DNA of 20,000 nt, from IMG/VR virus record IMGVR_UViG_3300036793_000098, one strand, 5' to 3'. A program made the position numbers and the translations under genes. Below the pieces are notes generated by a model. It was not told where the DNA came from, made no database searches, and was given only the letters and a program-made list of their open reading frames with translations. Position 1 is the first letter of the stretch. Each line of letters opens with the position of its first letter. Positions 16,005-19,936 of this stretch are shown piece after piece. Source of the stretch: an uncultured virus (IMG/VR IMGVR_UViG_3300036793_000098). Taxonomy: Duplodnaviria > Heunggongvirae > Uroviricota > Caudoviricetes.

Positions 16005-17597
16005 TCACCACAAGTTGGGTACTTTCCGCTTGGCCAGGGAGCCGTGTTCGATGGCCCAACCGCGGGCTTCGTAGGCCAGCAAGGCCGCCATGAACGCCGA
16101 AATGGACTGTGCGTGGCTCTTTTTGACGATCCGCTGGTAGTGCTCCGGCTGCCCGGGGACGCGTTCCTCGGACGTTGAGCGCCGTTTTCCGTTGGCCAGA
16201 GCGGCCCCAGCGGCGTGCATGGTGAGGATTTCCGTGCCGTCGTGGGTCAGTTCGTCGCCCCGATGGGCCGTTTGGAACCGTTCCACGAGCTGATCCATGC
16301 GCAGCTCGGAGTTGGTCCACAGTTCGTAGACCTTTTTCGGGTATTGACCGTCCCAGGTGTTGACCTCGGTCTGCCATCCGGTCGGCGTGCAGAACATGGC
16401 CTCGACTTCGTAGGCTTTGAACGCATCTCGTACCGCTTGGTGGACTTCATCGCGCGGAACCTGCCACTCGGGCTCCCCCGGGGCTCGTTCCCACGTCCTG
16501 AGGTGGTAAATGCGGCCGTCAGACAGCCGTGAGGCGCACAAACTGGTCGCGTCCCGGTTCTGGGACCCGTGGAAGCCCAAAGCGACCTGCTGACGCTTCT
16601 GAAGCGGCTCCGAAGAGTCCCGCTGGGCCGTCCACTTGATCATGTCGACGGCGTCACGCGAGCCGACCGTGACCTCGTTGAGATAGAACCGGCGAGACTC
16701 GCCCTCACCAGTGCTCGGGTCACGGATCTCGTCCATGATCCGCTCTAGACGGACCCATCCGCCGTTCTCGATGGCCGAATCGCCGTACACATGGAGCAGT
16801 TCGGCCCGCAGCGCCTGGTCATCGTCCAAGTCGACGCGCACTCGAGGCTGCCGATAGTCCAGGAACACGCCCGGAGCCTTGGCTTCCCAGGTCATCTGAG
16901 CTACTGAGCGCTCCGATGGGTCGTAGGCGTTGGTGAGCTCCATCCATCGGCCATCCATGCCGGCCAGGCCGCGCTTCATGGTGCGCGCCAGGTTCAGGCC
17001 GCCGCTGGATTCGGTGTAGAGGCCGGACTCAGTGAAGGTGGCGAAGGTGATCCGGGCGCCCAGTCGGCTCTTCGCGGCCGCCGTGACCGGCTCGATACGG
17101 CCACCGTCGGGCAAATTAACCCTGGTCAGGCCCACATCGAGGCCCGGGGTGTTCGCGGCCGGCCCCTCGGACAGCATCGTGAAGATCGGGCGGAACGTGT
17201 TGTCCACCTGATCTTCAGAGTTGGCGGCGCACTGGATCCAGGGCGTTGACATCGGGGCGCCGACAGGCTCCCCGCTCGCGTCCCAGCCGGCGAAGCGCAC
17301 CGGTCCGAGCGCTTGAGCACACGCCTGTGCGGCGGCAAGTGGATCTTTTCCGCTCTTCTGTGGTCGCACCAGAAGCGCGCCGTAGTAGACGAACGCTTGG
17401 CTGCCCATCTCCGGGCGTGCGTTCGGCTTGAGCTGGTACGACTTCATCAGGTGCCACTGCTGCTCAGACGTGAGCAGGAACGGCTCGCCCCGGCGGGGGC
17501 CATCCGGGACGATCAGATTCGCTTCGATCCAGTCGATCACCGTGAAGCCCAGCGTCGGGAAGGCACCCGGGCCGCCGTCTCCCCCGTTCCAAGGCAT
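16005..17597 (-). CDS. terL: Terminase large subunit (ATPase plus apparently degenerate nuclease domain)
   Basis: TLG..VIDWIE, PF.LT.EQ, Walker A RPQKSGKD, AANSEDQ, LTNA coupling motif and RRFYLN; located upstream of the portal. Confidence 0.93.
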   Translation of the reverse strand: MPWNGGDGGPGAFPTLGFTVIDWIEANLIVPDGPRRGEPFLLTSEQQWHLMKSYQLKPNARPEMGSQAFVYYGALLVRPQKSGKDPLAAAQACAQALGPVRFAGWDASGEPVGAPMSTPWIQCAANSEDQVDNTFRPIFTMLSEGPAANTPGLDVGLTRVNLPDGGRIEPVTAAAKSRLGARITFATFTESGLYTESSGGLNLARTMKRGLAGMDGRWMELTNAYDPSERSVAQMTWEAKAPGVFLDYRQPRVRVDLDDDQALRAELLHVYGDSAIENGGWVRLERIMDEIRDPSTGEGESRRFYLNEVTVGSRDAVDMIKWTAQRDSSEPLQKRQQVALGFHGSQNRDATSLCASRLSDGRIYHLRTWERAPGEPEWQVPRDEVHQAVRDAFKAYEVEAMFCTPTGWQTEVNTWDGQYPKKVYELWTNSELRMDQLVERFQTAHRGDELTHDGTEILTMHAAGAALANGKRRSTSEERVPGQPEHYQRIVKKSHAQSISAFMAALLAYEARGWAIEHGSLAKRKVPNLW

Positions 17598-17752
17598 TAC
17601 GCCTCCTCGGGGGCCGGCTTAGATCGCAGCTCGCGGGGCACGTCCTGACGGTCTTTCCATACCCGCAACTCGCGGAGCCTGCGAACGTCGGAAACGGAGC
17701 GCACACCCCGTCTGAGCAGCGCGAAATATTCCTCGCGCTCCGCTCGGGCCAT
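17597..17752 (-). CDS. Hypothetical 51-aa basic protein, possibly similar to the portal C-terminal motif
   Basis: ATG lies 2 nt after the upstream TGA and its TAA overlaps the terL ATG (TAATG), so it is coupled at both ends. Confidence 0.6.
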   Translation of the reverse strand: MARAEREEYFALLRRGVRSVSDVRRLRELRVWKDRQDVPRELRSKPAPEEA

Positions 17753-17754
17753 GG

Positions 17755-18054
17755 TCAGTTCGTGGTCGGGGTGTAGAGCTGGCCGGACATCTTGGCGTTC
17801 GGGACAACCTGCCACACGCCGTTGTTGAACCCGATCCAGTCGCCCGGGTTGATCGAGTACACGTCGTTGTTCCAGATGAACAGCGCGGTGTTGGGAGCAG
17901 CGGTGGTGGCAAGCAACTGGTTGGTGCCGCCGAGCACCGCCGACCAGTCCGTATTAAACGTGGTCGAGAACTGCGCGACGGTAACGCCGGTCGACGCGTA
18001 CTGGGTGAACTTGTAGATCGGCGTGTTGGCCGCGAGGAAATCAGAGGTAGCCAC
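17755..18054 (-). CDS. Hypothetical protein (99 aa, Thr/Asn-rich, PGDWI motif)
   Basis: AGGAG RBS, GTG start, strong GC3 codon bias. Confidence 0.8.
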   Translation of the reverse strand: MATSDFLAANTPIYKFTQYASTGVTVAQFSTTFNTDWSAVLGGTNQLLATTAAPNTALFIWNNDVYSINPGDWIGFNNGVWQVVPNAKMSGQLYTPTTN

Positions 18055-18062
18055 AACAACTC

Positions 18063-18329
18063 CTACGGGACGGGGAACGGGGCGGGCGGATCGGTCAGGT
18101 CACGCACACGCTGAACGGTGATCGGCTCCCCGTCGCGGACCCCGTCCTCCAGCCACACGATCTGGTTCTGCGCTCCGTGGGCGCGACGCTCGATCCAGTG
18201 CGTCAGCAGCACCTCGGACGGGTCGATGCCGTGCTGGGTGAACCAGCCCTGCCACAACGTGACGTGGTCCGGGCTGTCGTGCTGGACGTCCTCGCGGAAC
18301 CAGTCCCGGACGTTGTAGGCGGGAGGCAT
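18063..18329 (-). CDS. Hypothetical protein (88 aa, W...HGIDP..V motif)
   Basis: TGATG-coupled to the upstream gene; strong GC3 bias. Confidence 0.75.
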   Translation of the reverse strand: MPPAYNVRDWFREDVQHDSPDHVTLWQGWFTQHGIDPSEVLLTHWIERRAHGAQNQIVWLEDGVRDGEPITVQRVRDLTDPPAPFPVP

Positions 18330-18715
18330 CAGCTGTCACCCATGAAGGTCCGGAGTTCCTTGCCGTCCAGGTACAAGTAGTGCTCGCACTCCAGCTGCTC
18401 TAGCTCAGCTTCCGCCGCGGCAACACCAGTAGTGTCGACGTAGACCTTGATCGGCTCGTCACTCTCGCCGGACTGACAGGCCGCCTTCAGTGCCTCAACC
18501 TCAGCGATCGCGTCCACAACCTGAGAAAAGTCCACCTCAATGGTCATCTTCGAGTCCTTCAGCGCCCCCAAGAGCGCCTGGAACTCCTCGACCTCAAGGA
18601 TCTCGGGAGTCAGACCGCGGTCTAGCCGGGCGACTGCGCCGAACAGGCGTTCTGCGTTAGCCGGAGAGTGGAGCAGATGGCGGGTCTCGCGCCACGACCG
18701 GAACCAGCGGAACAT
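18329..18715 (-). CDS. Chimeric protein: YefM-antitoxin-like C-terminal helix fused to tape-measure-derived segments (128 aa)
   Basis: TGATG-coupled at both ends. aa 7-34 resemble the YefM C-terminus, and the remainder aligns to the N- and C-termini of the TMP in this window. Confidence 0.8.
   Translation of the reverse strand: MFRWFRSWRETRHLLHSPANAERLFGAVARLDRGLTPEILEVEEFQALLGALKDSKMTIEVDFSQVVDAIAEVEALKAACQSGESDEPIKVYVDTTGVAAAEAELEQLECEHYLYLDGKELRTFMGDS
18481..18594. repeat. Diverged direct repeat of tape measure segment 7731..7844
   Basis: Ungapped hand alignment gives 91/114 nt identical at an offset of 10750 nt, and 31/38 aa identical. Confidence 0.95.
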
Positions 18716-19146
18716 CAGGCGGCTCCGTCCGGGTCCACTGCCTTCAGGCGGAGCCGTGAGACGGGGGCCATCTGTACGTCCGGCATCTCGTCGTCCGCGA
18801 TCTCCCAGTCCAGCGACTTCATGGCGCGTGGGTTGCGGCCGAGGCGGTCCTCGAGCTGTCGCAGCTCGGCATGCATCTGCGCCGAGGCGACAGTGGCCTT
18901 GTGCTCGTAGCGCAGCGCGACAGCCACGTCCACGTAGCGCGCGATGATGTCCTCAATGTGCATACGCACCCAGACCTTGGCCTGTGGAGTGCGCCAGAGC
19001 TTCTGCCACAAGATCTCGTGGAACTCAGTCGCCGCTTCGCCGAACGACCACTCGGGGATCGGGCCGTCGTAGCCGTCCAGCGGGAGCTTCGGCGTCGGGA
19101 GGTTCCGGCGCAGGCGCTGGCCCTCCGGTTTACGTGGTGCTGGCAT
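18715..19146 (-). CDS. terS: Terminase small subunit (actinophage type)
   Basis: GGAGG RBS before ATG 19146. The pattern P.P.....RRN...LP..G..GP.P.W...W..LWRTPQA..W...ELRQLEDRLG..P..M..L.WEI is typical of actinophage TerS. Confidence 0.85.
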   Translation of the reverse strand: MPAPRKPEGQRLRRNLPTPKLPLDGYDGPIPEWSFGEAATEFHEILWQKLWRTPQAKVWVRMHIEDIIARYVDVAVALRYEHKATVASAQMHAELRQLEDRLGRNPRAMKSLDWEIADDEMPDVQMAPVSRLRLKAVDPDGAA

Positions 19147-19936
19147 GTGCCACCTCCCTGGCATTCCTGGCTAGAGCCAGGTAGTCCGCGGCCTTTAGCA
19201 AACGCGTGACGTCATCCCTGAAAAATCCAAGACCTACATTGCAGGACTTGCATAGAAGTCCACGAATGCAGCTCCCGCAAGACGCAGCCGCCGCGCAACA
19301 CGAATGATCGTGGTCTACGTGGTACCCCTCAGCTAGATCGTCGCCACACGCGGCGCACGAACCGTCCTGAGCCGCCAGTAAGGCGTCTAACTCCTCGCGG
19401 GTCGTACTGTGCTGGGACGCAACGACGCAAACCCGGCACATGTGCATCAACCCATCCCGGGAAGCAACATTCCTGCCGAATTCCGCCTCCGGAGCCCACC
19501 TCGCGCACCTATGGCACTGTTTGTTGCCGCCCTCATCGCGCGCCAAGGAGGGGCGCGGGCGCACTACAGGGCCCCGACGCAGCCGATTAGCGCGATCTTG
19601 ATTCCTGCTCTTCCGGTTCGTACAGGGGCGGCACGTGTTCATTAGTCCATCGAGCCTGGCGGCGTCACTGCCAAAGGAGTCCTCTGCGAACCAGAGGCGG
19701 CATAATGTGCACCGCTTGTTGCCGTTCTCATCGCGCTGCGCACCCCCGGTGCGGGGCTGGTTCTTCCCGGCAAGCCAGTTCCGCTCACGCTGTCTCTGAG
19801 CGATGCAAGGGCGGCACTTCCTCGCTAGCCCATCGGGCTTACGAGCATCACGCCCGAATACGGCCTCTGGACGCCACCGGAGACAGCTCGCGCATCGCCT
19901 CAGGTCATTCGCGCTTAGTTCCAGGGAATGCGCCAT
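19130..19936 (-). CDS. Endonuclease VII-domain (His-Me finger) protein with three N-terminal CxxC...CxxC zinc-ribbon repeats
   Basis: C-terminal Q.G.CAAC...HVDHDH.CC....CG.CIRGLLC..CN.GLG.F.DD...L..A..YL; GGAGG RBS; more A/T-ending codons than neighbouring genes. Confidence 0.9.
   Translation of the reverse strand: MAHSLELSANDLRRCASCLRWRPEAVFGRDARKPDGLARKCRPCIAQRQRERNWLAGKNQPRTGGAQRDENGNKRCTLCRLWFAEDSFGSDAARLDGLMNTCRPCTNRKSRNQDRANRLRRGPVVRPRPSLARDEGGNKQCHRCARWAPEAEFGRNVASRDGLMHMCRVCVVASQHSTTREELDALLAAQDGSCAACGDDLAEGYHVDHDHSCCAAAASCGSCIRGLLCKSCNVGLGFFRDDVTRLLKAADYLALARNAREVAHASTT

Follow-up and report, generated by a model that had tools for sequence, protein, structure and literature searches.

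The 20,000-nucleotide stretch of DNA from the uncultured virus IMGVR_UViG_3300036793_000098 analysed here (referred to in its full length as the window) carries the module for packaging and virion structure of an HK97-like tailed phage, encoded entirely on the minus strand. An open reading frame (ORF) of 387 nt, P0001, lies after the small and before the large terminase gene of this module, and not after the genes for the tail tube and the tail assembly chaperone; its 128-amino-acid (aa) product exhibits a composite architecture. It comprises an N-terminal head of about 40 residues that resembles the C-terminal, YoeB-binding domain of the antitoxin YefM, fused to a scaffold that resembles both termini of the tape measure protein (TMP) encoded in the same window. 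Positions 18614-18697 of the minus strand encode aa 7-34 of this product, and the sequence of this region is exactly that quoted in the initial annotation, which had proposed that the ORF encodes an orphan YefM-like toxin-neutralising helix fused to a mini-TMP. The features of the locus, and those of two further phage proteins discussed below, are collected in Table 1.

When the whole 128-aa protein was compared with all PDB sequences using phmmer, eight matches were obtained at an expectation value (E) of 10 or less, and all eight were YefM-type antitoxins, with no Phd or other antitoxins among them. The best match was RelJ/Rv3357 of Mycobacterium tuberculosis (3oei/3cto; E 0.0012), in which aa 5-50 of the phage protein align with RelJ residues 43-88. 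Escherichia coli YefM (2a6q) was matched at E 0.13, and Staphylococcus aureus YefM forms, one of them a 38-residue chain, were also found. Counted by hand on the HMMER alignments, aa 7-34 are identical to RelJ at 16 of 28 positions and to E. coli YefM at 14 of 28. The likeness of about 16/28 that the initial annotation had given is thereby borne out, and the homology search against YefM antitoxins that it had suggested returned precisely this family.

Comparison with curated families placed the head in the same part of the antitoxin. Pfam PF02604 aligned with aa 5-33 at profile positions 45-73 of 74 (E 0.046; 13.9 bits against a cut-off of 29.8), and the YefM equivalog NF008499, which was the sole antitoxin model matched in NCBIfam, aligned with aa 5-35 at positions 45-75 of 83 (E 8e-4 with all 128 aa as query, 1.1e-4 with just aa 1-42; 19.5 bits against a full-length cut-off of 121 bits). 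Compared with a YefM encoded beside yoeB in a genome of the probable host genus, the head is identical at 18 of 31 positions and reaches a BLOSUM62 local score of 87. Shuffled sequences scored 21.6 ± 4.1 on average (n = 5000) and none of them attained 87, which lies about 16 standard deviations above that mean. Furthermore, a hidden Markov model (HMM) built from four YefM proteins of the host genus matched just one of the 354 six-frame segments of the window, namely the frame of the ORF (23.1 bits, E 9.7e-7), the next-best segment scoring 3.5 bits.

The head contains the C-terminal toxin-binding segment of YefM with its conserved Glu-Thr and Asn-Ala..Arg-Leu positions, and the N-terminal β1-α1-α2-β2-β3 DNA-binding and dimerisation domain is missing from the protein. 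The initial annotation had already stated its absence; since the ORF starts only four residues before the match, this domain is absent and not merely diverged. Judged from these alignments, aa 5-35 are a true homologue of the YoeB-binding segment of YefM, specific to the YoeB-binding subfamily; here too the PDB, NF008499, shuffle and HMM results agree with what had been claimed for the segment. After G34, the residues EILE align with DLLD of a host YefM C-terminus across a two-residue gap, and aa 35-42, which gave no significant match by themselves, are a possible equivalent of strand β4.

The structural account of S. aureus YefM (PMC7544224) assigns residues 1-40 to a DNA-binding dimer and residues 41-81 (α3, α4 and β4) to a U that surrounds YoeB and blocks its catalytic face, with β4 pairing with β1 of YoeB. 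In the register given by the PDB alignment, residue n of S. aureus YefM corresponds to phage residue n-40. The salt-bridge glutamate E50 is retained as E10, four of the six hydrophobic contacts (T51, L54, L64 and L71) are identical in the phage protein (T11, L14, L24 and L31), and the other two are conservatively replaced (Y53 by H13 and I68 by V28). Residue N60 of S. aureus YefM is likewise present, as N20.

The predicted interaction with the toxin was assessed by co-folding aa 1-50 of the ORF product with an alignment of four YoeB sequences of the probable host genus. The interface score (ipSAE) reached 0.79, 0.80 and 0.79, the best of three controls scoring 0.00; the predicted local distance difference test (pLDDT) value of the partner was 82, and the runs shared at least 98% of their contacts. 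Of 157 solved complexes, 116 attain the pass mark applied, as do 2 of 215 mismatched pairs, counts that are rough here because an alignment of our own was used. The predicted interface involves phage aa 6-31 and 35-42 together with YoeB residues 1-10 and the C-terminal residues of the toxin, as in the solved complexes, and within it aa 35-42 contact YoeB residues 1-10. As YefM-YoeB complexes have already been solved (2a6q, 3oei and 6l8e), such a pass speaks for likeness to a binder and not for binding. The co-fold with an actinobacterial YoeB suggested in the initial annotation succeeded against its controls (0.79 versus 0.00) but provides evidence of likeness only. The AlphaFold2 model of the monomer, with a mean pLDDT of 46, is usable for secondary structure alone and places helices at aa 3-10, 12-16 and 18-30; the ESM Atlas yielded no feature score of 0.9 or more and no structural template-modelling (TM) score of 0.5 or more.

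Table 1. Features of the mini-TMP locus (window coordinates, minus strand) and of two Pseudomonas-phage proteins carrying the same segment
Feature	Coordinates	Strand	Description
ORF P0001, 128 aa	18329..18715	minus	YefM C-terminal-domain-like head plus N- and C-terminal TMP ends
YefM helices α3-α4 homologue (YoeB-binding segment), aa 5-35	18611..18703	minus	motif ET..LL.SP.NA.RL
Possible YefM β4 equivalent, aa 35-42 (LTPEILEV)	18590..18613	minus	overlaps start of TMP-like part
TMP N-terminal region copy, aa 41-98	18422..18595	minus	TMP aa 23-78, 38/58 identical (66%), E 1e-18
TMP C-terminal motif copy, aa 111-121 (EHYLYLDGKEL)	18353..18385	minus	TMP aa 1327-1337
Small-terminase-like gene, 149 aa	18715..19164	minus	adjoins ORF upstream; Terminase_7 E 1.1e-4 (below cut-off), phrog_226 E 2.7e-15
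Conserved 88-aa gene	18063..18329	minus	adjoins ORF downstream; directly after small-terminase-like gene in related phages
TMP, 1361 aa	3826..7911	minus	TMP PHROGs, best E 4.5e-32; source-like paralogue of the ORF ends
Pakpunavirus protein WIC39260.1, 213 aa (Pseudomonas phage vFB297)	L015:1192-1833		segment aa 101-131; NF008499 E 2.6e-4
Pseudomonas putida phage Voja-6 protein WYW02181.1, 255 aa	L016:880-1647		segment aa 200-231; NF008499 E 5.8e-4, PF02604 E 5.4e-4

The remainder of the protein corresponds to two separate regions of the TMP, and the fusion to a mini-TMP put forward in the initial annotation is confirmed at both ends. The C-terminal motif EHYLYLDGKEL resembles EHRLYIDGREI, located about 25 residues from the C-terminus of the TMP, and aa 82-121 match TMP residues 1297-1337 at E 0.016. 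The mini-TMP is made of the two TMP ends without the approximately 1230 intervening residues, the likeness being confined to these ends; at 128 aa, compared with 1361 aa for the true TMP, it is not a long protein with a central hydrophobic or coiled region and a length that sets that of the tail, as TMPs are. The TMP itself carries, at about aa 850-1010, approximately eight tandem copies of a unit of about 19 aa (consensus near W.TFVK.FT.F.AQ.KA).

Relatives of the protein are very scarce. A word-index search of 5.8 billion clustered proteins returned just two, P0002 (109 aa) and P0003 (91 aa), and the same search with the head (aa 1-42) returned no protein besides the query. When 1.84 billion representatives were searched exhaustively, three proteins were obtained, the query included, the third being P0005 (534 aa). 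The C-terminal motif shows little or no variation in P0002 and P0003, and both TMP ends are kept in all three members of the family. The N-terminus is the variable end of this conserved scaffold, because it is there that P0002 and P0003 differ. No match was found in the phage collection, either by megablast of positions 17500-19300 or by tblastn of the 128-aa protein, and no relatives were found among the 12 pattern matches of a viral-contig scan with the protein or among the 412 of a metagenome-contig scan with the family alignment. The nearest genome record, a 7-kb fragment (G001), matches solely through a TMP N-terminus.

The ATG of the ORF has one base in common with the stop codon of the preceding gene (TGATG), as its stop codon has with the ATG of the gene that follows, and a GGAG sequence is found 8-9 nt upstream of the start; the ORF is translationally coupled to the small-terminase-like gene. 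The GC fraction by codon position is 0.67/0.40/0.78 over the ORF as a whole and 0.70/0.53/0.75 within aa 1-40, values that resemble those of the adjacent genes. A wrong start codon was considered and rejected, since the first ATG shows the same coupling to the preceding stop codon as that of the 88-aa gene in L005, a related contig, and it is further disfavoured by the coding-type GC distribution within aa 1-40. Moreover, positions 18355-18862 recur with no differences in a 508-nt contig of another soil study, which covers the junction between the small terminase gene and the ORF as well as the entire head; given this exact match, a single faulty assembly does not account for the fusion. DNA of this phage is present in soil metagenomes, with no RNA dataset listed among those that contain it, and sequencing runs X3 and X4 cover just part of the 88-aa gene. 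A second contig in X1, the probable source sample, joins position 18233 to 19048, with 487 other letters replacing 18234-19047; this contig may represent a co-occurring relative devoid of the mini-TMP gene, its flanks of at most 35 letters at 90% likeness being too weak for use.

Comparison with related phages indicates how the gene is placed. The ORF sits exactly between two CTGATG stop/start junctions (18713-18717 and 18327-18331), and in L005 (5399-5406) the small-terminase-like gene leads directly into the 88-aa gene through a single CTGATG junction. Such an exact cassette insertion preserves the coupling of the flanking genes on both sides. The ORF is absent at the corresponding place in three related phage contigs (L003, L004 and L005), and in the whole genome bin that holds L005 it is matched by the full TMP alone; cassette-like presence and absence of this kind is typical of accessory or anti-defence genes. 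In L003, whose small terminase is 85% identical, the small terminase gene is followed by a 643-aa ORF (763-2694), with no small genes or large terminase there; either the layout of this contig differs or the contig is permuted. Aligned as DNA with the closest YefM genes available, the head shows 58-61% identity, with matches at 9-15 of 31 third codon positions and at 20-23 of 31 first and second positions. As third positions are so diverged, the head is not a fresh, undecayed capture from those genes.

Along the module, the genes follow in the order endonuclease VII/HNH, small-terminase-like protein (upstream of the large terminase gene), the 128-aa ORF, three small ORFs and large terminase, and then portal, prohead protease, major capsid protein, connector, tail genes and the TMP, a structural module of the siphovirus type. 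PADLOC gave no match for the ORF or its three small neighbours. The endonuclease VII/HNH protein (19130-19936, minus strand) carries three N-terminal Cys-rich repeats (C..C...W....F.....DGL...C..C) before its nuclease domain.

A bare YefM segment is also encoded by other phages. When aa 1-45 were searched by tblastn against 50,697 phage records, 29 weak matches (E 0.1-2) were obtained, 26 of them in Pseudomonas phages, and two of the protein families behind these matches were inspected. WIC39260.1 and WYW02181.1, both annotated as hypothetical proteins, match YefM profiles just from position 42 or 47 to position 72 or 77, without the YefM N-terminal domain. All six PDB matches of the Voja-6 protein were YefM; the Pakpunavirus protein gave a weak YefM match (E 0.91) ranked behind an unrelated one. 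Eight positions (E10, T11, L14, A19, N20, A21, R23 and L24) do not vary among the six sequences compared, three from phages and three from hosts, and five of these are YoeB contacts named in PMC7544224. Like the protein described here, WIC39260.1 and WYW02181.1 carry an isolated α3-α4 segment, with no YefM N-terminal domain, on an otherwise unrelated phage protein; unlike it, they have no TMP part, hold the segment internally or near the C-terminus, and come from phages whose hosts belong to the Pseudomonadota. From these comparisons of sequence, at least three phage proteins unrelated to one another have received the bare YefM binding segment, an arrangement for which no description was found among the literature matches listed.

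The hosts of this phage lineage were approached through its terminase. The large terminase (TerL) is at most 38% identical to the TerLs of cultured phages, whose hosts are Actinomycetota among the matches listed (2041 records in all). The closest relative, L005, is a 69-kb contig with a TerL 74% identical that was binned with a Nocardioides metagenome-assembled genome (MAG). YoeB was found above the Pfam cut-off in 4 of 61 sampled genomes of that genus, with yefM upstream in all four. In the window itself, the initial annotation had noted no yoeB-like gene, and this holds: a YoeB HMM run over all six frames of the 20 kb gave a best score of 5.7 bits (E 0.27), family scans detected no toxin family, and the neighbours of the ORF are the small-terminase-like and 88-aa genes, with no adjoining toxin.

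On the basis of homology, architecture and predicted binding, we consider the ORF a candidate orphan antitoxin domain that neutralises YoeB-type toxins, and we assign this reading a probability of roughly 0.55. In its favour count the specific homology to YefM, the retained YoeB contacts, the co-fold, the sporadic presence of yoeB with yefM in the probable host genus, the exact cassette insertion, the divergence at third codon positions, the recurrence of the segment in the two Pseudomonas-phage proteins and the identical contig of the other soil study. The interpretation given in the initial annotation, in which the segment blocks host YoeB/RelE-type RNases and the TMP part would be a stabiliser, oligomeriser or delivery tag, is partly supported. 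In the mechanism proposed, the first ~40 residues would be the toxin-neutralising C-terminal domain of YefM (α3, α4 and perhaps a β4-like strand), joined to a scaffold that combines ~60 residues from the start of a TMP with ~20 from its end. This head would wrap the RNase face of a YoeB-type toxin of the host in the manner of YefM and keep the toxin inactive during infection, and such a phage-borne orphan antitoxin domain would constitute a counter-defence against a host yefM-yoeB module. The mechanism presupposes that YoeB limits this phage and that the protein is made, both of which we infer. As to the TMP ends, our guess is that they mediate oligomerisation or load the protein into the tail, so that it would enter the cell with the DNA. 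The latter is a testable idea, suggested by analogy with the effectors described in PMC13277306 and by the position of the gene in a late operon. The further-reaching version, in which the TMP ends are a loading signal, the antitoxin travels in the tail lumen next to the true TMP and is ejected with the DNA before phage genes are expressed, and the grafting of bare segments is a recurrent phage strategy, seems to us rather unlikely as a whole.

Several observations weigh against neutralisation of a host YoeB. P0002 and P0003 consist of the scaffold without the YefM-like head, P0002 carrying a different 17-aa extension and P0003 none, and the rarity of the family (three proteins among 1.84 billion representatives) precludes judging conservation. 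All curated family scores of the head fall under their cut-offs, which is to be expected because the match is a fragment (40% of the profile). The confidence of the monomer model is low, though a disordered antitoxin segment would look alike, and the success of the co-fold may reflect resemblance to the solved complexes instead of binding. The gene belongs to a late packaging and structural operon, unlike many anti-defence genes, which are found among early genes. The host genus is probably Nocardioides, solely through the related contig in a MAG of that genus, and the whole bin that contains L005 shows no PF06769 match and thus no yoeB. Finally, no demonstration of phage defence mediated by YoeB was found among the literature matches listed, and a phage-borne toxin could be encoded in the ~50 kb that complete the ~69.6-kb contig of which the window is a 20-kb part.

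Among the other explanations, that of a recombination relic would hold that illegitimate recombination set the 3' part of a yefM gene before a small TMP-derived gene, so that the head is tolerated and the function resides in the TMP-like part. The headless scaffolds of P0002 and P0003, one of them with another extension, agree with it, as do the mosaic nature of phage genomes, in which this gene is itself a cassette, and the fact that the fusion is known from this phage alone. We nonetheless find a relic unlikely: YoeB contacts have been kept, whereas synonymous sites show saturation in the comparison with the closest YefM genes available, the captured piece starts at a domain boundary and holds the complete binding segment, the same isolated segment occurs in two other families of phage proteins, and the co-fold with YoeB is confident. 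An accidental likeness of a short helical peptide could be entertained in view of a segment of just ~31 residues with curated scores that are all sub-threshold, but we rejected it as virtually negligible in probability, the PDB matches to a single family (8/8), the NCBIfam match, the shuffles (0/5000) and the single hit of the host-YefM HMM in the window (E 9.7e-7) ruling it out.

The remaining two explanations are, in our estimation, both improbable. In one, the protein is the antidote to a toxin of the phage itself, a yoeB-like gene elsewhere on the contig forming with it a split module for addiction, exclusion of other phages or regulation, with no host toxin as its target. Phages and prophages do carry modules of the Phd/YefM family, for which phd-doc of P1 is the name-giver, and most of the contig lies outside the window. 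Type II pairs, in turn, are nearly always adjacent and co-transcribed, which is at odds with a window without a toxin, and neither L005 nor its bin has a PF06769 match, though L005 also does not have this gene. In the other, the protein acts through its TMP ends as a tail-assembly or exclusion factor, for instance by competing with the phage's own or an incoming TMP, and the head is an oligomerising helical hairpin. The retention of both TMP ends throughout the family and the location in a structural operon would fit such a role, as would the participation of α3 of YefM in the dimer interface (PMC7544224); it leaves unexplained why YoeB-facing residues are retained and why the same segment occurs in Pseudomonas-phage proteins that have no TMP part.

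An orphan antitoxin domain directed at YoeB would relate to known systems in different ways. With YefM, RelJ and Axe (PF02604, NF008499; 2a6q, 3oei and 6l8e) the phage protein shares the α3-α4 motif in the same register and the predicted wrapping of YoeB; it differs from them in having neither the N-terminal domain nor an adjoining toxin, in being fused to TMP-derived sequence and in being encoded in a packaging and structural operon. Described phage antidotes to toxin-antitoxin defence include T4 Dmd, which acts against RnlA and LsoA, and the pseudo-ToxI RNA of phiTE (PMC10286901). AdfN, an orphan DarG1-like NADAR enzyme of T4-like phages that reverses the damage, is presented by its authors as, to their knowledge, the first lytic-phage antitoxin homologue for counter-defence (PMC11825919). 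The concept of a phage-supplied antidote to host toxin-antitoxin defence is common to all of them; Dmd, however, has no homology to the antitoxins whose place it takes, pseudo-ToxI is made of RNA and AdfN works as an enzyme, whereas the protein described here would reuse the binding segment of a type II antitoxin by homology.

For the scaffold, the closest parallel by description is provided by the Sle1-type effectors of actinobacterial contractile injection systems, which are reported to be TMP-related, to carry exchangeable functional domains and to be packaged in the tail-like particle (Nagakubo et al. 2026, PMC13277306). Both are small modular proteins of Actinobacteria or their phages, built on TMP-related parts with an exchangeable domain, and Sle1 offers a precedent for TMP parts as a loading platform. 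The Sle1-type proteins are, as described there, effectors of bacterial contractile particles with a C-terminal functional domain, unlike the N-terminal head encoded by this siphovirus-type phage. RelE/ParE-superfamily toxins have been placed in defence contexts in a bioinformatic review (PMC11980606). In line with the initial annotation, which knew of no described antitoxin-tape-measure fusion, none was found among the literature matches listed.

If correct, the reading of the ORF as an orphan antitoxin domain would represent counter-defence in which a phage has captured the toxin-binding piece of a type II protein antitoxin; unrelated mimics, RNA decoys and enzymes are the forms known so far. 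The TMP-derived scaffold raises the possibility of anti-defence cargo that is delivered through the tail. Since the bare segment also occurs in well-studied lytic Pseudomonas phages, the idea is testable in culturable systems. Opinion is still divided on whether yefM-yoeB and other classical type II modules protect bacteria from phages. By retaining just the toxin-gripping part of an antitoxin, a phage gene provides indirect evidence that the toxin is of consequence to phages, together with a direct means of testing this, and, if the grafting of such segments proved to be recurrent, classical yefM-yoeB modules would act as anti-phage defences.

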